Source: an uncultured Candidatus Saccharibacteria bacterium
GTDB lineage: Bacteria; Patescibacteriota; Minisyncoccia; Phycocordibacterales; Zambryskibacteraceae
Assembly (NCBI GenBank): GCA_964446535.1
Contig: CAYUOR010000004.1
Coordinates: 1-46,380 of the forward strand
Direction: 5' to 3'
DNA length: 46,380 bases
Made by a program: the position numbers and the translations under genes. The notes beneath the pieces are model-generated. The model had not been told where the DNA came from, did no database searches, and was given only the letters and a program-made list of their open reading frames with translations. Shown here piece by piece: positions 7,610 to 36,059 of this stretch (the first letter of the stretch is position 1; each line of letters opens with the position of its first letter).

Positions 7610-7804
7610 ATGAATATAAAAAAGGGGATTGAGCACCATTTTGCTTTCTGGTTCTTAGTATGGGTAATATATGCTCTTTCAATTGCACTTTCATTTGAGC
7701 GTATCTACATATCGCAAGATTTCCCCGTGTTTTACGCAGAAGAAGAAATACCAGATCCACTTACCCCTATTAGAGGACTTCTTGATCTTTTTACACCAAA
7801 ATGA
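7610..7804 (+). CDS. small single-pass membrane protein
   Basis: ATG 7610 lies 7 nt after TATAAT (7597-7602); hydrophobic FAFWFLVWVIYALSIALSF; ATGA overlap with the kinase. Confidence 0.6.
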   Translation: MNIKKGIEHHFAFWFLVWVIYALSIALSFERIYISQDFPVFYAEEEIPDPLTPIRGLLDLFTPK

Positions 7805-9426
7805 ACTGTGAATGGGATACCGCGCGGTTTCTGATTTTTTCTGACAACGGCATACCGCTCCTTTATTACTCTCACCTAACTTCTGTTGCAATCTTTATTG
7901 GTTTGTTTTTACTGACTTTTCTGAAGCTTAAACCATGGCCCAAGGGCGCATTTCGCTTAATGATTATTTCTTATGTGATATGGCTTCTGGGTGACCTTGT
8001 GCTTTGGGGTAATGAAAGGATGGATCATGTTATGTTTTTCTGGACCATTGTTAACCTTGTTGAGCCGATAATTTTCGCGGCCGCCTATATACACTTTGTC
8101 TCTTTTACAGATCAGAGAAAGTCAACCAACAAAGAGAAGATATTAATATTCATCCTATTAATCCCCACAGCAATAATGGCCCCGCTCGGCCTTTCGACAA
8201 TAGGCTTTGATTATACAAACTGTGACAGAAATGTCGTCGAAGGAATTGCCGCCTACTATAACTATTTTCTCGAGGCCATATTTATTGTCCTAATACTTGT
8301 ACATGCTGCAAAGAAGTTTATCTTATTAAAAGAACACCGACACCAAATATATCGCCTCGTCTGGGCAACTGGAAGTCTCGCCATACTCCTAACGTCGTTT
8401 TTGTTCGCCAACTTCTTTGGCACATATTTTGTTGCTTATGAAATAAGCCAACTTGGTCACGTTGCCGTCCCTATTTTTGCAGCCCTTCTGGCCTATATAA
8501 CTGTAAGATTTGACACCCTGGAATCTAGGATCTTGCTTATAGACGTTCTGACCTCAAGTCTCATTATTCTGATATTCTCACTTTTATTTATTAGAAATGA
8601 AGACGCACAAACTGTGGTTGTCTTAGTATCATTGGCCCTATCAATACCAATGGCCTATACTCTGATGTCTGGTATTAGAAAGGAAGTACACTCAAGACAG
8701 CGCATAGAACAACTCGCGGGCGATTTAAGGCGCGCCAACGAAGGTCAGCAGAATCTTATTCACATCATTAACCATCAGATTAAGGGTTACCTGGCGAAGG
8801 CGAGAAACATTTTCTCCGAACTTCTTGACGACCCGTCCTACGGCCCGATTCCTGACGCCTCCAAGCCGATGCTTGAAGAGGGTTTCAAGTCTCTTACCGA
8901 AGGTGTGGACTTCGTCAAAGACTTCCTGGACGCCTCAAATATTGAAAAGGGTTCCTACGCCTTTAGTGTTGTGCCTATAGATTTTAGAGAAATGGTTAAA
9001 GAAACAGCCGAGAAGCAGAAAACTCTGGCAGAGGAAAGAAAACTTTCCTATGAGGTAAAAATTGAAGACGGTGACTACAACACTAAGGGCGACAAGCTCC
9101 AGCTCGGGCAGGCGGTGAAAAATCTTATAGACAATTCTCTCCGCTACACTCTTGAGGGTGGAGTCTCCATTAATCTCTCTCGCAAGGACGACAAGATTCT
9201 TTTGTCTGTAAAAGATACTGGTGTCGGTATCTCGGAAGAGCTGAAGCCGAAACTTTTCACACAAGGTGGGCGGGATAAAAATTCAATCAAGATAAATATC
9301 AACTCAACCGGCTTTGGTCTCTCATTCGTCAAGTCTGTTGTCGAGGCGCACAAGGGTCGCGTCTGGGCCGAATCCGAAGGGGTTAACAAGGGCTCCACTT
9401 TCTACATGGAGTTACCCGTAACATAG
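7801..9426 (+). CDS. sensor histidine kinase with N-terminal multi-TM domain
   Basis: About 7-9 TM segments; H-box IINHQIKGYL; N box KNLIDNS, G1 VKDTGVGI, G2 STGFGL, GSTF. Confidence 0.93.
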   Translation: MNCEWDTARFLIFSDNGIPLLYYSHLTSVAIFIGLFLLTFLKLKPWPKGAFRLMIISYVIWLLGDLVLWGNERMDHVMFFWTIVNLVEPIIFAAAYIHFVSFTDQRKSTNKEKILIFILLIPTAIMAPLGLSTIGFDYTNCDRNVVEGIAAYYNYFLEAIFIVLILVHAAKKFILLKEHRHQIYRLVWATGSLAILLTSFLFANFFGTYFVAYEISQLGHVAVPIFAALLAYITVRFDTLESRILLIDVLTSSLIILIFSLLFIRNEDAQTVVVLVSLALSIPMAYTLMSGIRKEVHSRQRIEQLAGDLRRANEGQQNLIHIINHQIKGYLAKARNIFSELLDDPSYGPIPDASKPMLEEGFKSLTEGVDFVKDFLDASNIEKGSYAFSVVPIDFREMVKETAEKQKTLAEERKLSYEVKIEDGDYNTKGDKLQLGQAVKNLIDNSLRYTLEGGVSINLSRKDDKILLSVKDTGVGISEELKPKLFTQGGRDKNSIKININSTGFGLSFVKSVVEAHKGRVWAESEGVNKGSTFYMELPVT

Positions 9427-9451
9427 TTTTCTCACTTCTAGCCACCCCCTG

Positions 9452-9480
9452 TAGTCTAATTCGCGCGAATGGTAGAATAG
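9452..9480. repeat. 29-bp direct repeat, copy 1, with 12-bp palindrome ATTCGCGCGAAT
   Basis: TAGTCTAATTCGCGCGAATGGTAGAATAG; one mismatch to 9753-9781; contains the extended -10 of the arsR-like gene. Confidence 0.9.
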
Positions 9481-9484
9481 ATGT

Positions 9485-9760
9485 ATGAAAGACAGAGAAA
9501 TAGAAAGAGTATTGAAGGCTTTAGCCAACAAAAGACGCTTAGCTATTCTTGAGAGTTTGCGTAAAAACAAAGAGAAAAGCGTTGGAGAGATCGCCGACGG
9601 TATCAAACTATCATTTCGCGCCACCTCAAAACATTTATCAATCCTCGTAGGCGCCGAGATTCTCGATAGAGAACAGAGAAGCCTGCAAATGTTTTATAGT
9701 TTAAATAAATCAGCCCCGGACATAGTCAAACACCTTCTCCGCACTCTTTCCATAGTCTAA
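9485..9760 (+). CDS. ArsR/SmtB-family transcriptional regulator
   Basis: LKALANKRRLAIL, SVGEIA, ATSKHLSIL, FYSL winged HTH; no Cys. Confidence 0.92.
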   Translation: MKDREIERVLKALANKRRLAILESLRKNKEKSVGEIADGIKLSFRATSKHLSILVGAEILDREQRSLQMFYSLNKSAPDIVKHLLRTLSIV

Positions 9761-9781
9761 TTCGCGCGAATGGTGGAATAG
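9753..9781. repeat. 29-bp direct repeat, copy 2
   Basis: TAGTCTAATTCGCGCGAATGGTGGAATAG; overlaps the stop of the arsR-like gene. Confidence 0.9.
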
Positions 9782-9837
9782 TTTGAGTTGTGAGGTCGCG
9801 CATTTTGCTTGTATTTGTTTTGTGATAAAGTGGCGGC

Positions 9838-11967
9838 ATGAAAGGGTTTTTGGCCATATTTTTAGCCTTATTTTTACCGGTTTTTGCCTTTGCTGCGATA
9901 GAAAATCCTTATGTCGTTGACGAGAAACCTCAAGTAATTTTCGGCGACAGTGTACCTGTTCTCACTTATTTCGGACTAGAAAATTACACACAAGACTACG
10001 TAGGCGGCTATGCGCACATAACCTTTACATACACGCACCACTCGTGCTGTTTCGCTTCTTTTCCTCCGAAAATTTACGTAACTAATACTGATCCAAGTGC
10101 AACATCAACATCGATAATAAAAGCAAATGAACCCCTGTTTACACTCTTGCCATTCGCTCACCCAACAGATTGGTATTTATACGACATTCAGTTTGATGCA
10201 AGCGGATACACGATAAGTGTCAAACAATCCGGCGAAACAGAAATACTTAATGAGCATAGAGACATCGCTGATTTAGCCGATAGCGACTGGATGGCACTAG
10301 CAAACAACCATCCGAATGTTGGCAACAACCAGTCTATGGCGTTTACTCCTGTTCCTATAAGGGAGGTACCACAAAAAAATCCGGTAATAATTATTCCGGG
10401 AATTATGGGTTCAGCACGCAAAAACGACGCGCTGGTTATAGATCCAATCCTCCATACTTATGATGATTTAATTGCAACGCTTATAGCTAATGGTTATGTC
10501 GAAGGAACTGATTTATTTATCTTCCCGTACGAGTGGAGAGATTCAAATGTTTTCACTGCAAATCTTTTGGATGACAAAATAGACGAGATTAAATCCATGT
10601 GTGTTTGTGACAAAGTTGATATTGTCGCCCATTCAATGGGAGGGTTGGTGGCACGTGCATATATACAGTCGGTTGATTATGACAACGATGTTGACCAGCT
10701 AATATTTCTAGGAACTCCGCACAGGGGATCACCTAAGGCGTATTTACAGTGGGAGGCCGGTGAAAGTGACGTGGATGTAAGAGATCAAGTTATAAACCTG
10801 TTTTTCTCAGCTGAGGCGTTGAGAAATGGATACCTAACAGTTTTTAGTTATATAAGAAACAAGCCGATTTTATCTGTTCAGGAATTATTGCCAATATTTG
10901 ACTATATAAAGGACAGTGATACTGAAGTATTGAGAAGTTATCCGGCCAACTACCCAAGAAACTTCTTCTTGGAAAACTTAGACAACAACATCTCCAATCT
11001 TCTTAGTTCAGGTGTAGAAATCGTTAATTTTGTTGGGGATTCTGAGGAAAACAAAACAATTGAAGCAATAAGAGTTATACAAACCTCTCAACATCCGCGC
11101 TGGGAACATGGTGAACCAGAAGGGTTTAGTAATTCTTCCGGGGACAATGGCCTTGAAAGAGGTGTTGGTGATAATACCGTTACAACAATTGGTTCATCTC
11201 CCGATGGGTTTATTAGTGAGGAGATTGTGGCTTCGCACAATAGAATTCCAACAGTAGCGGCCAATAGAATCGTAAAAATTCTTACTGGCGAGGACTCAAT
11301 AAGCAACATTGACAATGGTTTAAATGTTAGTGCCAAGATCTTGCTAATGCAGCTTCTTTCCCCAATAGATGCATTGGTCACCGCTCCGGACGGTAAGAAG
11401 ATTGGAAAAGATTTTTCCAACAATACTGAATATGATGAAATTCCGTTCGCATTTTACTCTGGATTTGAAACCAACGATGAATACATAACGATTCTTAATC
11501 CACTTGATGGAGAATACAAGGTAGAAATACAAGGAACAGGTGATGGTGGAAAATATGAATTGCTAACAAGCTATGTCTCTGAAGAATTTGCTACTACCAC
11601 TAGTATCTCTGGTATTACCAAACCTAACCAATTAACAAATTTGAATGTTCGTGTAGATAACGAAAACCCAGAAGATCTATCTGCAGAAAGGGAAGTTACT
11701 TTAGAAATATTTATAGCAGACATAAATGGTGCTTATGATTTAGGCTGGATTACTGATAAAAAAACTAGGGATGCTTTAATAAAACAAGCAAACCTTATTA
11801 TTAAATTTGAATTAAAGAAGAATGGTAAAAAGGAAAGGCAAATAGATAAAATCATAATAAGACTATTGGAAAAGGAGCTGGATTTGTTACTTAAAAATGG
11901 TAGAATCAACCAAGAAGTATACCGGCTGTTAAAGGAGGATTTACTATATTTTATAAGTAATAACTGA
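9838..11967 (+). CDS. secreted alpha/beta-hydrolase (PGAP1/LCAT-like lipase or acyltransferase) with C-terminal accessory domains
   Basis: Signal peptide; PVIIIPGIMGS, YEWR, DIVAHSMGGLVAR nucleophile elbow, LGTPHRGS, GDNTV, SHN. Confidence 0.88.
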   Translation: MKGFLAIFLALFLPVFAFAAIENPYVVDEKPQVIFGDSVPVLTYFGLENYTQDYVGGYAHITFTYTHHSCCFASFPPKIYVTNTDPSATSTSIIKANEPLFTLLPFAHPTDWYLYDIQFDASGYTISVKQSGETEILNEHRDIADLADSDWMALANNHPNVGNNQSMAFTPVPIREVPQKNPVIIIPGIMGSARKNDALVIDPILHTYDDLIATLIANGYVEGTDLFIFPYEWRDSNVFTANLLDDKIDEIKSMCVCDKVDIVAHSMGGLVARAYIQSVDYDNDVDQLIFLGTPHRGSPKAYLQWEAGESDVDVRDQVINLFFSAEALRNGYLTVFSYIRNKPILSVQELLPIFDYIKDSDTEVLRSYPANYPRNFFLENLDNNISNLLSSGVEIVNFVGDSEENKTIEAIRVIQTSQHPRWEHGEPEGFSNSSGDNGLERGVGDNTVTTIGSSPDGFISEEIVASHNRIPTVAANRIVKILTGEDSISNIDNGLNVSAKILLMQLLSPIDALVTAPDGKKIGKDFSNNTEYDEIPFAFYSGFETNDEYITILNPLDGEYKVEIQGTGDGGKYELLTSYVSEEFATTTSISGITKPNQLTNLNVRVDNENPEDLSAEREVTLEIFIADINGAYDLGWITDKKTRDALIKQANLIIKFELKKNGKKERQIDKIIIRLLEKELDLLLKNGRINQEVYRLLKEDLLYFISNN

Positions 11968-11968
11968 A

Positions 11969-12331
11969 GTGAATAATGTTTTAAAAAATATTTTAGTTAC
12001 TTTATTCTCACTAGTCATAAGCTATTTTGTGGCTGATTATTTTGGTATTTGGTACACAACAATATTTGGCTATGGTAGTGCCTGGATAGGTAGTGAAGAA
12101 AGTTGGAATTTTATAATAGGATTACCGCTATCCTTATCTTTTTTTCTTACGCTCATTTTGAATACGTGGATATTTAAAAAAATTACTTCGACAGTGTGGC
12201 TGATATCACCATTAATACTTTATGAGGTAATAGTAGACATTCGTCATATTTATATAACACTTATTTTAATTATACTGGCTTTCAGTGTTTCTTCGCTTCT
12301 AAAAAAGTACTTTAATTTAACAACACAATAA
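11969..12331 (+). CDS. small 4-TM membrane protein (candidate immunity protein)
   Basis: GTG start 1 nt after the lipase stop; 120 aa, mostly hydrophobic; AT-rich. Confidence 0.7.
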   Translation: MNNVLKNILVTLFSLVISYFVADYFGIWYTTIFGYGSAWIGSEESWNFIIGLPLSLSFFLTLILNTWIFKKITSTVWLISPLILYEVIVDIRHIYITLILIILAFSVSSLLKKYFNLTTQ

Positions 12332-12332
12332 C

Positions 12333-12524
12333 CTAAAAAAGATAGAGAACCTAGAGAAGAAAATTACCAAAAAGAAAAAGAATGACAAGTCCCTCGAGGG
12401 TGTAAAAAGGAAAATTGGGAAGATTGTAGTAGGATTGGAGAGAAAAGCCGTAAAAGGTAAACTGTCCGACCAAGATGCTCAAGACATTACTAACTTGCTT
12501 GAGGCCCTCGAAAGTACGTTATAA
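12333..12524 (+). pseudogene. start-less C-terminal gene remnant 1
   Basis: Open 63-codon frame LKKIENLEKKITKKKKNDKSLEGVKRKIGKIVVGLERKAVKGKLSDQDAQDITNLLEALESTL*, no start codon; collinear with remnant 2. Confidence 0.75.
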
Positions 12525-12533
12525 TTTATAGAC

Positions 12534-12626
12534 ATGAAAAAAATAGTGATAATCGTGGGTTGTATTCTATTATTAGCGCTCCTGTTATATTGGTATCTAC
12601 TTAACAATACTGCACCACAGTTCTAA
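12534..12626 (+). CDS. 30-aa hydrophobic micropeptide (not in ORF track)
   Basis: MKKIVIIVGCILLLALLLYWYLLNNTAPQF*; ATG 8 nt after TATAAT 12520-12525. Confidence 0.55.
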   Translation: MKKIVIIVGCILLLALLLYWYLLNNTAPQF

Positions 12627-12686
12627 ACGGACTTCACCCTCCACCCTGGATTATTTGCGATCTAGTCTTGATTTAGTATGGAACCG

Positions 12687-12706
12687 TTCGCGCGAATGGG
12701 AGAATA
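12687..12706. repeat. third, partial copy of the palindromic repeat
   Basis: TTCGCGCGAATGGGAGAATA, 19/20 identical to 9460-9479. Confidence 0.8.
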
Positions 12707-12910
12707 AAGAAAAATCTCTTAAAAAAGCTTGATAACTTAGAAAAAAAGATAGAGAAGAAAAAGGCTAAAGGTAAATCATTAGAAGCCATAAAAAAGAGAA
12801 TTGAAAATATAATTAAGAATATAATGAAGAAAGAGGGACGAGGAGTTATAAACGAAGCTGATGCGCAGGAAATCACTACATTGCTAGAACAAATAGAAAG
12901 TGCGCTATAA
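12704..12910 (+). pseudogene. start-less C-terminal gene remnant 2
   Basis: IKKNLLKKLDNLEKKIEKKKAKGKSLEAIKKRIENIIKNIMKKEGRGVINEADAQEITTLLEQIESAL*; 32 of 63 residues identical to remnant 1 by manual count. Confidence 0.75.
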
Positions 12911-12919
12911 TTATAGAAT

Positions 12920-13306
12920 ATGAAATTTATAAAATTGTTTCTTATTCTATCAATAATTCTCTTAGTTTCTGGGTTTTTAATTTTAAATTCTGATATTCAA
13001 GCTGGTTCTACTGGAGAATTGTTAATCAGAGTCGGGAAAGCTCTTGTTTATGGTATGGGCGCTCTCGCTATTGTATTTTTGGTTTTACTGTCTGCCCAAC
13101 AAGCAGTTCCAACTTGGAAAAAATTTGCAAAATGGTATATACCATTTGCTACCCTTTTCTTCATCTTTTATTCTGATCCGGGTTCAGGAAATTATTTCGC
13201 CCCTTATCCAGAACAAGTTTTTAAATGGTTGAGTGGCATCTATGTTGTTGCGAGTTTCTGGATTATCGGCCGAGTCGTATTGAGCCAAAAACACACAAAT
13301 AGCTAA
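12920..13306 (+). CDS. small 4-TM membrane protein (candidate orphan immunity protein)
   Basis: 128 aa, hydrophobic; ATG 8 nt after TATAAT 12906-12911. Confidence 0.75.
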   Translation: MKFIKLFLILSIILLVSGFLILNSDIQAGSTGELLIRVGKALVYGMGALAIVFLVLLSAQQAVPTWKKFAKWYIPFATLFFIFYSDPGSGNYFAPYPEQVFKWLSGIYVVASFWIIGRVVLSQKHTNS

Positions 13307-13345
13307 AAATCTAAGGTAGAAAAATCTGGTATTATTGAGGGATAT

Positions 13346-14299
13346 ATGGCAGAGAAGAAGACTTTGGTTTCGGGAGTGAAGCCGACAGGGCGGCCGCATA
13401 TCGGCAACTATTTCGGCGCGATGAAGCAGTTCGTCGAGCTTGGCACCCTTTACCAGAGCCATATTTTCATCGCCGACCTGCACGCCCTGACCTCTCTACA
13501 GAACGGAAAAGAGCTTAAAGACAATAGTTTCGGAGTCCTCTTAGACTACCTAGCCATAGGGCTTGATCCGCAAAAGGTTTCTCTTTATAAACAGTCGGAC
13601 GTGCCGCAGGTGGCGGAACTCGCCTGGATTTTCAACTGCCTTACAACTATGCCGTACCTGATGCGTGGGCATGCGTTCAAGGATGCCGAAGCAAAAAATA
13701 AAGAGATAAACGTCGGTGTTTTTGATTACCCGCTTCTTATGGCGGCAGATATTCTTATCCAGGATGCAGACGTAGTACCTGTCGGAGCCGATCAGAAGCA
13801 GCACGTCGAGATTGCCCGCGACGTAGCGCAGAAGTTTAACAACACTTACGGCGAGACATTTAAATTACCCGAAGCGGTTATCTTAGACCAAGTCGCGACC
13901 GTGCCAGGCACGGACGGCAGAAAGATGAGCAAGAGCTACGGCAATACAATAGAACTCTTCGCCTCCGACGATGAGATTGAGCGCGCGGTTATGAGCATCG
14001 TCACCGACTCGACCAAAGATGTGCCAACGAATGTCTATGCAATGCACCTTCTTCTCCGCAAAAAGAGTGAGCTTGATAAGCTCTACGATGAAAAAAGAGG
14101 TAAGTATAAAGAATTAAAAGAGGCGCTTATAGAAGACTTAAAAAAACTTATTGGTCCCATGCGCGAGAAGCGAAAGAAACTCGAAGGTGACAAAAAGGCG
14201 GCACTCCAGATTCTTGAATCGGGCGGTAGGGTCGCCCGCCTCAGGGCCGAAAAGAAAATGGCGGAAGTAAGGGAGAAAATAGGTTTAACACTAAAATGA
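13346..14299 (+). CDS. trpS: tryptophan--tRNA ligase
   Basis: SGVKPTGRPHIGNYFGA, YPLLMAADIL, VPVGADQKQH, KMSKSYGN. Confidence 0.97.
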   Translation: MAEKKTLVSGVKPTGRPHIGNYFGAMKQFVELGTLYQSHIFIADLHALTSLQNGKELKDNSFGVLLDYLAIGLDPQKVSLYKQSDVPQVAELAWIFNCLTTMPYLMRGHAFKDAEAKNKEINVGVFDYPLLMAADILIQDADVVPVGADQKQHVEIARDVAQKFNNTYGETFKLPEAVILDQVATVPGTDGRKMSKSYGNTIELFASDDEIERAVMSIVTDSTKDVPTNVYAMHLLLRKKSELDKLYDEKRGKYKELKEALIEDLKKLIGPMREKRKKLEGDKKAALQILESGGRVARLRAEKKMAEVREKIGLTLK

Positions 14300-30822: not shown

Positions 30823-31425
30823 ATGAACGCCATCGAGAGACTTGCCGAGATTTTCTCACGCTTCCCCGGTATCGGACCAAGGCAGGCAAAGCGTTTTGTC
30901 TATTTTCTCCTGTCTAGGAATGGCGACTACTCTGGAGAACTTGTTAAAGCTATAGGCGAGCTCAAAAAAAGTACCGTCCAGTGTCAATCTTGTATGAGAT
31001 TCTTTGTTCTGGAAGGGCAGAAAACTCGTCTTTGCGATATTTGTTCCGACGAAACGAGAGAAAGGGAGACTTTAATGCTTGTGCAGAGAGATATTGATTT
31101 CGAAGCGATAGAGAGAAGCGGTGGATACAGGGGTTACTATTTTATCCTCGGTGGCGTGGTTCCGATTCTTGAGAAAGAGCCAGAAAAAAGAATAAGAGTT
31201 AAAGAGCTCGATACGCGGTTTAAAAAGGACAAAGGAATAAAAGAAGTAATTCTTGCGGTGAATGCGAATCTCGACGGCGAGAACACCGCCGACTTTATAA
31301 AAGAGCGTTATAAAAATTTACCGCTCGAATTTTCTGTTCTCGGCAGAGGCTTATCGACCGGTGCCGAACTTGAGTACGCTGACCCGGAAACCTTAAAGAG
31401 CGCCCTACTCCACCGCACTAAGTAA
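30823..31425 (+). CDS. recR: recombination mediator RecR
   Basis: FPGIGPRQAKR, CxxC...CxxC, Toprim, GAELEYAD. Confidence 0.96.
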   Translation: MNAIERLAEIFSRFPGIGPRQAKRFVYFLLSRNGDYSGELVKAIGELKKSTVQCQSCMRFFVLEGQKTRLCDICSDETRERETLMLVQRDIDFEAIERSGGYRGYYFILGGVVPILEKEPEKRIRVKELDTRFKKDKGIKEVILAVNANLDGENTADFIKERYKNLPLEFSVLGRGLSTGAELEYADPETLKSALLHRTK

Positions 31426-31847: not shown

Positions 31848-32900
31848 CTATTCTACTGAAGGTCGCTCTATTGTCAACGGTTCTAAATCTATACCGGAAC
31901 CGGTGATTTTTAGGACATCTTTGTCTATCTTTTTAAACTCCTTGCCGGCGGAGTTATACTTGTTGACCGCGGTCTCTAGCGCGTTACCGAGCTTGGAGTA
32001 GTGTTCTTCATAAGCAGAGAGATGTTTCTGAAGATCACCAACATTTTTGATAATACTTTTCACGGACTCTTCTATTTGCATGCCCTTCAGACCCTGTAAA
32101 ACGGTCTGGAGATAGGCCAGAAATGAGGTTGGCGAGACTATTAGGACATGGTACTTGGAGGCGGCGCGCTGAATCAGGCTTTCCGAGTCTTCCTTAAGAG
32201 CTCCAATTTTATTAATAAGCAGGTCATAGTAGATAGCCTCATGCGGAATGAACATAAAAGCGAAGTCCATAGTTCCCTCACCGGGTTTTATATACTTAGC
32301 AGTTTCGGTTATACGCATTTTAAGGTCGTTGACGAAAGCTTTTTCTAACTTTTCTCGTTCACTCGGATTTTTTTCTTCAACGATACGATTATAGTTCTCT
32401 AAAGAGAACTTTGAATCAACAGGAATAATTTTATCTTTTATAAAAACTGCCGCATCGACGATGGTGCCATCAGTAAATGTGTACTGCATTTGATAAGAAC
32501 CCGGCGGTAAAACATTTTTCAGTAAAGTTTCCAAATAATATTCGCCAAGCACTCCTCGTTGCTTCGGATTTTTTAATATCTCTTGGAGCGACTGCAACTG
32601 ATCCGCGAACGAGACCACCTGTCTGTTTGTCTCGTCGAGTTTCGTCAACCCCTGTGTCACTTCGCGAATAAGTTTTGCCGATTCGCCGAACTGCATTCTT
32701 ACCGACTCGTTCATCATCTTGTTCGTGTCGGAAAGTTTCTGATCCATACTTCGCGAGAACTCGTTGAGTTGCGTAAGAAGTAATTGTAACCCCTCCCCTT
32801 CTTTCTCCGGTTTCTTGGAAAATTTTCTGGCGAAGTAAATTAAAACTGCGGCATTAATTACGACAAGCAGTATCACAGATACTAGGACGAGGTTGGTCAT
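31848..32900 (-). CDS. rmuC: DNA recombination protein RmuC
   Basis: N-terminal TM, coiled coil, RGVLGE, VDSKF, DFAFMFIP, IVSPT. Confidence 0.93.
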   Translation of the reverse strand: MTNLVLVSVILLVVINAAVLIYFARKFSKKPEKEGEGLQLLLTQLNEFSRSMDQKLSDTNKMMNESVRMQFGESAKLIREVTQGLTKLDETNRQVVSFADQLQSLQEILKNPKQRGVLGEYYLETLLKNVLPPGSYQMQYTFTDGTIVDAAVFIKDKIIPVDSKFSLENYNRIVEEKNPSEREKLEKAFVNDLKMRITETAKYIKPGEGTMDFAFMFIPHEAIYYDLLINKIGALKEDSESLIQRAASKYHVLIVSPTSFLAYLQTVLQGLKGMQIEESVKSIIKNVGDLQKHLSAYEEHYSKLGNALETAVNKYNSAGKEFKKIDKDVLKITGSGIDLEPLTIERPSVE

Positions 32901-35810: not shown

Positions 35811-36059
35811 CTAAATCGCCCCCTCTTTCCTTAAAATACGCCTTTTAGCGGCCCCTCCGCCTCTAAAGCCACCCGTATCGCCATTCGAGCGAATAACTCT
35901 GTGGCACGGCACTTTTGGGTCGTAATTCTGGTTTAAAATATTCCCTACTGCTCTGAAAGCTCTGGGACTCCCGGCACGTCTTGCCACCTCTTTGTAAGTT
36001 AGGGTCTTACCCTTCGGAATCTTTGCCACCACAGAGTAAACTTTTTCTTTAAACGTCAT
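35811..36059 (-). CDS. MGMT-family protein (single domain)
   Basis: IPKGKTLTY, RAVG, PCHRV, LRKEG; 82 aa. Confidence 0.92.
   Translation of the reverse strand: MTFKEKVYSVVAKIPKGKTLTYKEVARRAGSPRAFRAVGNILNQNYDPKVPCHRVIRSNGDTGGFRGGGAAKRRILRKEGAI

Follow-up and report, generated by a model that had tools for sequence, protein, structure and literature searches.

Three copies of a palindromic repeat in a Patescibacteria genome are most likely operators of a sensor-less ArsR-type regulator

Introduction

SmtB, CzrA, and CadC are autoregulated repressors of the ArsR/SmtB family, and their operators are inverted repeats of about 26-28 bp. Other members of the family, such as HlyU (Vibrio), NolR (Sinorhizobium), and PagR (Bacillus anthracis), are sensor-poor or of the redox type; they bind palindromic DNA, and HlyU is an activator or anti-silencer. 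The genomes of Patescibacteria (candidate phyla radiation [CPR]) are tiny and encode very few regulators, and gene control in the group has hardly been defined by experiment. A LexA regulon was reportedly described in the group by Sanchez-Osuna et al. in 2017, and it is the only regulon of the group that was found cited. Here, a stretch of 46,380 nucleotides from an uncultured Candidatus Saccharibacteria bacterium (contig CAYUOR010000004.1; "the window" below means this whole stretch) was analyzed for a palindromic repeat, two copies of which bracket a small arsR-like gene, while a third lies about 3 kb downstream.

The original prediction, made from the window alone, offered two roles for the repeat: the operator of the ArsR-like protein, or a recombination site at which gene cassettes are added, or both. 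In the analysis below, the three copies are read as probable operators of the 91-aa sensor-less ArsR/SmtB-type regulator that is encoded between copies 1 and 2. The repeats are most likely binding sites of a regulator at (predicted) promoters, and not scars or sites of cassette recombination.

Results

Repeat copies in the window

The sites and the gene between the first two of them are listed here by their positions in the window.

9452-9480, + strand: site 1, the predicted operator-promoter of arsR (palindrome at 9459-9470, extended −10 at 9470-9478; 43.5 bits).
9485-9760, + strand: arsR-like gene for a Cys-free, minimal winged helix-turn-helix protein of 91 aa (Pfam HTH_5, NCBIfam NF033788).
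9753-9781, + strand: site 2, a second predicted operator, covering the final two codons of arsR and its TAA stop (9758-9760); 44.3 bits.
12679-12707, + strand: site 3, a weakened copy with the core GTTCGCGCGAAT and the outer arm GAGAAT (30.1 bits), adjoining remnant 2 (described below) and in frame with it (VRANGRI).

Copy 1 (9452-9480) reads TAGTCTAATTCGCGCGAATGGTAGAATAG and copy 2 (9753-9781) reads TAGTCTAATTCGCGCGAATGGTGGAATAG. As the original prediction had it, the two form a 29-bp repeat with one mismatch, 301 bp apart from start to start; 28 of the 29 positions are identical, and the sole difference is A at 9474 against G at 9775. The third copy (12687-12706, TTCGCGCGAATGGGAGAATA), also reported there, was verified in position and in its 19/20 match. 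The core ATTCGCGCGAAT, described as a perfect 12-bp palindrome, is one in copies 1 and 2 and is altered in copy 3. The repeats had been said to flank arsR exactly, and they nearly do: copy 1 stops 4 nt before the ATG, but copy 2 overlaps the end of the gene.

A 22-mer searched with up to 3 mismatches gave 2 matches in the window, compared with 0 in every one of 100 shuffles. A weight matrix trained on CPR sites was run over the 46-kb window and shuffles. It picked exactly three places, which are the copies scored in the list above, and the rest of the window and all shuffles reached 8 bits at most. A near-match (ATTCGAGCGAAT at 35883) was rejected, as it does not score as a site under the matrix.

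The site is built of the 12-bp palindrome (ATTCGC joined to GCGAAT) and an outer GAAT 4 nt further along one arm. Fully symmetric relatives have the outer GAAT on both arms (ATTC-N4-ATTCGCGCGAAT-N4-GAAT) and measure about 28 bp overall, and a site of about 28 bp would be long enough for two protein dimers. At the −10 position, copy 1 carries TGgTAGAAT, which is a good extended −10, copy 2 carries TGGAAT, and copy 3 carries GAGAAT; the extended −10 is intact in copy 1 alone, as had been stated. The palindrome of copy 1 ends at the T of TGgTAGAAT, over the promoter of the regulator's own gene, and an upstream site is found in nearly all homologous loci. The outer arm of copy 1 would double as the extended −10, and the bound protein would then cover the arsR promoter and give autoregulation. 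The gap between TAGAAT and ATG is 6 nt in the window and is repeated in five of the loci fetched for comparison (designated L with a number; here L146, L155, L157, L161, and L173). Because this −10-to-ATG spacing is conserved, the arsR transcript is probably leaderless.

The encoded regulator

By its sequence, the 91-aa protein is a bona fide ArsR/SmtB winged helix-turn-helix protein: its open reading frame (ORF) matched Pfam PF01022 (HTH_5; 6.9e-9, 35.9 bits vs a cutoff of 22) and NCBIfam NF033788 (66.9 bits vs a cutoff of 55). The best PDB matches were HlyU, NolR, and PagR (E 3e-7 to 1e-6), and CzrA was matched as well. A database look-up of the exact protein sequence returned no record.

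Homologues of the protein were found in the fetched loci (n = 46) and inspected for metal ligands. The window protein contains no Cys, and neither a conserved Cys nor a C-terminal His/Asp/Glu pattern was seen in the 46 homologues, the only conserved His being that of SKHL in the recognition helix. Metal sensing is probably not the role of this protein, because it lacks both Cys and conserved metal-site residues. The motif, its arrangement, and its occurrence together with the regulator gene across the phylum (see below) are observed; binding to the sites, the sign of the regulation, and a signal are what we infer. Of the two signs, repression is the more likely. The sign is not transferable from HlyU, because of the activating or anti-silencing action of that protein.

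Occurrence of the motif and its link to arsR

The pattern TTCGCGCGAATGGNNGAAT was scanned over a collection with one genome per species, and at least 120 stretches matched. About two thirds of these were Patescibacteria of many classes, with the consensus tTCTCTAATTCGCGCGAATgGTaGAATAg; the groups among the matches listed were Saccharibacteria, Paceibacterota, and Giovannoni-, Kaiser-, Jorgensen-, Zambryski-, Harrison-, Uhr-, Curtiss-, Doudna-, and Kerfeldbacteria. The matches listed did not include the window's own genome. The CPR sites agree with one another well beyond the search pattern. The remaining matches came from high-GC genomes, lay within long ORFs, and were chance-like. Three loci titled uncultured Gammaproteobacteria (L029, L040, and L071) carry the CPR motif, and their bin labels are probably wrong; L071 also has an arsR homologue, and L040 has a target gene of 575-578 aa that is shared with the Uhrbacteria locus L072. 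No paper with ATTCGCGCGAAT, nor one joining Patescibacteria, ArsR, promoter, and motif, was found in the literature.

An ArsR homologue (46-71% identical) is encoded in 37 of the 120 matched loci listed. In these 37 loci, the palindrome is located 14-90 nt before the arsR start and again at −17 to +47 of the stop. The TAA in TCTCTAATTCG is very often the arsR stop codon, and a downstream site overlapping the stop codon is the rule across CPR. Both flanking sites are present in 43 of about 47 homologue loci (genomes and metagenomes, the window included), at a spacing of 292-434 bp. The layout is incomplete in two loci that are truncated at their ends, and in three others a pair of sites precedes the gene but none follows it. 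The spacings show no helical phasing (vector length 0.19-0.26, n = 43), which speaks neither for nor against DNA looping between the flanking sites. A second sample of loci was drawn via the neighboring kinase gene, independently of the motif, and its arsR homologues were bracketed in all cases (L126, L128, L146, L154/155, L157, L161/162, L172, and L173/174). A search for the motif in relatives, proposed along with the original prediction, has returned mostly Patescibacteria, with the site-arsR-site layout in most loci that encode an ArsR homologue, and on this comparison the layout is ancient and phylum-wide.

The 28/29 identity of copies 1 and 2 and their exact bracketing of a 276-bp gene would also be expected if the two were a recent local duplication (of a target site or of a promoter, at the insertion of arsR) with no function of their own. 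However, the same bracketing and the same sequence are found in dozens of species with ArsR proteins just 46-75% identical, and copy 1 is as close to the site upstream of arsR in L157 as to copy 2. The L157 site comes from a different species (ArsR about 75-83% identical) and matches copy 1 at 29 of 29 positions, because of which the identity of the repeats is attributed to constraint and not to recent duplication. A local duplication is hardly credible, as the comparative data already contradict it. The constraint also takes away one argument of the original prediction, in which the 29-bp identity at the junctions had pointed to cassette recombination.

Divergent ArsR alleles (about 50% identical to that of the window) are encoded in L126 and L128, and there the cores are altered on both flanks. 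In L128, the core is ATTCGTACGAAT at both flanks (3835 and 4143), and in L126, the cores are ATTCTCACGAAT and its reverse complement ATTCGTGAGAAT (12097 and 12430). These variant cores are the only ATTC-N4-GAAT words in the L128 and L126 loci (7.4 and 21.6 kb, respectively). Bracketing that is kept despite a changed core is the strongest evidence here that the protein would read the site. L126 has the closest kinase (86% identity) and yet a different arsR allele; the arsR unit seems to have been replaced in this locus. With the phylum-wide layout, the kinase-chosen loci, and the variant cores on both flanks, the comparison strongly supports the earlier suggestion that the copies may be the ArsR operator.

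The sites are directional and lie just ahead of start codons, and 12 of the 37 arsR starts are 0-9 nt past the GAAT. With 71 of about 185 sites, TAGAAT is the most frequent outer arm, and it is at a leaderless distance from many starts. Genes behind other CPR copies encode Tgt, TsaC/Sua5, an IscU-like protein, MsrA, RarA, an RNase T-type exonuclease, TatD, NUDIX, GIY-YIG and PD-(D/E)XK nucleases, FemAB, GNAT, an ABC exporter, and hydrolases. The frequency and placement of TAGAAT would suit a promoter element for RNA polymerase or a special sigma factor, with arsR as merely one of its carriers, and copies that are in frame within housekeeping genes (see below) resemble parS-like sites, as expected if the motif belonged to another protein (nucleoid, partition). 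Neither version is likely, and together they are given very little weight: the GCGAAT arms of fully symmetric sites do not resemble a −10, the bracketing of arsR on both sides in 43 loci greatly exceeds what would be expected of a gene that is just one of many under such control, and the variant cores track the divergent ArsR alleles.

Genes around the sites

The window holds housekeeping genes of a Patescibacteria genome (grpE-dnaK-dnaJ, trpS, aspS, scpAB, murG, gyrB, and others). Of the fetched loci that bear a name, the closest is from a Candidatus Zambryskibacteria metagenome-assembled genome, with about 70% nucleotide identity. The gene order is SET-domain gene, histidine kinase, site 1, arsR, site 2, 709-aa LCAT/PGAP1-like lipase, and 120-aa membrane gene, followed by lipase tail 1, a 30-aa ORF, site 3, lipase tail 2 (remnant 2), a 128-aa membrane gene, and trpS-aspS. 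The features other than the sites and arsR are as follows.

9823-9831, + strand: TGaTAAAGT, a putative extended −10 for the lipase gene; it precedes the ATG by 6 nt, a geometry shared with the arsR promoter (inferred from a reading of the sequence).
9838-11967, + strand: secreted LCAT/PGAP1-like alpha/beta-hydrolase (lipase-like), 709 aa (Pfam LCAT 4e-13, PGAP1 2.8e-11).
12677-12910, + strand: remnant 2, the orphaned C-terminal tail of a lipase paralogue, lacking a usable start codon (homology to the L154/155 lipase).
12920-13306, + strand: gene of a 128-aa membrane protein with its own TATAAT (48% homologue after the lipase in L155).
13346-14299, + strand: trpS with its own TGgTATTAT promoter (Pfam tRNA-synt_1b), directly behind an operator in several relatives.
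9470-9487, 9823-9840, 12519-12537, 12904-12922, and 13328-13348: −10-to-start stretches, as read from the sequence.

The −10 elements (TGnTAnnAT or TATAAT) of these stretches are 6-10 nt before the starts of arsR, the lipase gene, the 30-aa ORF, the 128-aa gene, and trpS. Most messages of this stretch would be leaderless or nearly so, and the only Shine-Dalgarno-like run (GAGGG) among its genes is at trpS. No terminator-like sites were found in 9000-13500, and tRNA was the only known RNA family in the window. The multi-pass histidine kinase (7801-9426) is directly upstream of arsR here and also in L018, L128, L161/162, and L172. This adjacency is lost in other relatives; the ArsR-like protein is without a receiver domain, and no response regulator was seen in the window.

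Copy 2 is located over the arsR stop, at about −78 to −59 of the lipase start, and would tie the lipase unit to the same regulator. It may act as a weak second promoter-operator, as a roadblock to read-through from arsR, or as an upstream control site. The lipase gene is the likely target of site 2, and lipase homologues are found downstream of the arsR unit in L161/162, L015, L126, L128, and L146. In a related strain from a drinking-water metagenome (run X4), position 9775 is changed from G to A, which makes the arm TAGAAT as in copy 1 (340-nt contig, 6 differences).

Relatives have an operator 60-80 nt before trpS (L121-123, L161/162, and L015; at 13553 in L161 and 12148 in L121), and the distal arsR site occupies this position in L154/155, L157, and L173/174. 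Copy 3 would be the decayed counterpart of the operator that is just ahead of trpS-aspS in close relatives. Between site 3 and trpS, the window has tail 2 and the 128-aa gene, both with homologues after the intact 799-aa lipase in L155; remnant 2 is 55% identical to the tail of that lipase in L154/155.

Several observations weigh against the sites being operators of the encoded regulator. The single metatranscriptome run gave one 151-nt contig (9459-9609), which maps no start and which, if it is RNA, begins upstream of the predicted arsR start. The common outer arms GCGAAT and TGGAAT are poor −10 hexamers, and because of this a promoter role cannot hold for all sites, copy 2 included. With the putative lipase promoter, the −35 is downstream of copy 2, and simple occlusion fails from such a position. 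The predicted targets are heterogeneous and have no clear physiological theme. Copies of the motif are also found in frame within housekeeping genes of other CPR genomes, which a plain promoter-operator model does not explain. The motif is read as (S)LIRANG(R/G)I in genes for Tgt (L089 and L101), MnmA (L058 and L061), and a BirA-like protein (L055, L064, and L080), and site 3 of the window, which shares the frame of tail 2, is read as VRANGRI. Dus genes (L038 and L065) have the motif inside in another frame, read as SNSREW. A simple 30-bp insertion was rejected as the origin of the in-frame copies: the motif of Tgt replaces a linker, with essentially no length change compared with a motif-free copy.

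Gene content at the sites and recombination

The operator reading was compared with one in which copies of the motif serve as recombination substrates, either in addition or as their main role, and the arsR and lipase/membrane-gene units are movable modules bounded by the site. Several features of the relatives fit such modules. The interval from the kinase to trpS is highly variable, from direct adjacency (L142, L145, L163, L166, and L187) to several kb of different genes, with a lone site before trpS in L121-123. The arsR unit is before the lipase in the window and in L161, and after it in L154/155 and L173/174, and the genes to the left of closely related arsR units (about 75% aa identity) are of three different kinds. 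No more than about 5 nt separate copy 3 from the point at which remnant 2 is truncated and its homology to the L155 lipase tail begins, and the two orphan lipase remnants have the same tail codon as their first. The 11-nt left flanks of sites 1 and 3 are identical in L161.

Against these stand the following results. The absence of a recombinase from the window, noted in the original prediction, was borne out by inspection of ORFs and a Pfam scan of the unassigned ones, which found no site-specific recombinase, although the scan was not exhaustive. RmuC (31848-32900) and RecR (30823-31425) were the only recombination-related genes seen in the window, and neither is a site-specific recombinase. 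The site has no stable single-strand fold (−1.2 to −2.1 kcal/mol, z −0.25 to +0.52 vs shuffles); with this, and with no terminator-like sequence nearby, a hairpin, terminator, or attC reading was rejected. Contigs of the source runs (X1 and X2) span both copies intact and contain no excision joints, which is a weak test at a depth of just 4-6x; the relatives in runs X3 and X4 gave short pieces only. The reads had been proposed as a place to look for excised circles, and none was indicated by these contigs. In 2.9 million viral contigs, the motif matched 6 times, with no enrichment, none with arsR, and in contexts unlike the CPR consensus, and phage carriage was rejected on these counts. The conservation of the flanking pair across the phylum at 292-434 bp speaks for function rather than repeated recent insertion, and each unit has its own −10, unlike promoterless cassettes. 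A mobile repeat of the repetitive extragenic palindrome (REP) or miniature inverted-repeat transposable element (MITE) kind was also considered and rejected, the motif having three copies in 46 kb that are conserved across classes, directional, and near start codons.

The claim that junction position favors a role in rearrangement was sustained in part: the gene content by the sites differs among relatives and copy 3 adjoins remnant 2, but the inference of cassettes fails. Invariant gene content between strains had been named among the findings that would refute rearrangement, and by this measure the idea survives. The switching of gene content at the sites, which had been suggested as a check, is also expected if the site marks the heads of transcription units. 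Breakpoints beside the sites are expected in any case, because sites that head transcription units adjoin the breakpoints when whole units move. Recombination substrates are an improbable main or additional identity of the copies, and a real secondary role of the sites in recombination is rated only a little less doubtfully.

Orphan copies of the last 25-80 codons of the kinase were observed one to three times downstream of the intact gene, with unrelated inserted genes between them, in metagenome relatives (L132-L134, L138-L141, L143, L150, L171, L173/174, L188, and L190). The 3' end of the kinase gene looks like an insertion hot spot, with the incoming DNA bringing a replacement tail. The two orphan lipase tails, which share a start codon, may be of similar origin.

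Operator function and mobility may be combined in a more speculative proposal, which we hold to be rather unlikely: site-arsR-site would be a portable, self-contained regulatory cassette of Patescibacteria, and the operator copies, near-identical direct repeats that head adjacent transcription units, would also be places where units are lost, gained, and re-ordered. If true, it would explain the arsR unit on either side of the lipase unit in relatives and the position of copy 3 exactly at the truncation point of the lipase paralogue, into which the copy had perhaps been written in frame (VRANGRI) beforehand, as is seen for the motif in genes for Tgt, MnmA, and BirA-like proteins of other genomes.

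Discussion

Read as operators, the repeats change the annotation of the window: they would be regulatory sites tying arsR, the secreted lipase-like gene, and, ancestrally, trpS-aspS to one regulator, and they are not evidence of an integron-like system. A sensor-less ArsR-fold protein and a near-invariant site of 28-30 bp in many classes make a directly testable regulator-operator pair for Patescibacteria. With it, regulons could be predicted by sequence alone in thousands of uncultured genomes.

The repeats resemble integron attC/attI arrays in that, within a variable region, a recurring site separates small gene units of one orientation. Unlike in integrons, no integrase (IntI) was found, there is no attC-type hairpin, the units have their own promoters, and the site is conserved phylum-wide. 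HrcA with CIRCE and LexA with its boxes are alike in another respect, as there too one regulator and one near-invariant palindrome are kept over deep divergence, at the promoters of the regulator and of other genes. The protein family and the site are different here, the targets are heterogeneous and lineage-specific, and some copies are in frame within genes.

HlyU, NolR, and PagR are the best solved-structure matches to the window protein, but their identity to it is low and their operators are different. With SmtB, CzrA, and CadC, the locus shares a small winged-helix dimer, a palindrome over its own promoter, and a site of two-dimer length, all predicted here from the sequence. It differs from these three in that the regulator has no Cys or conserved metal-site residues, a second operator lies in its own stop codon, and the site is near-invariant across a phylum and serves many unrelated genes. 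In kind, the system would be an autoregulated ArsR/SmtB repressor with an inverted-repeat operator, distinguished by the missing sensor site, the second operator over the stop codon, the near-invariance across the phylum, and the breadth of the genes served.

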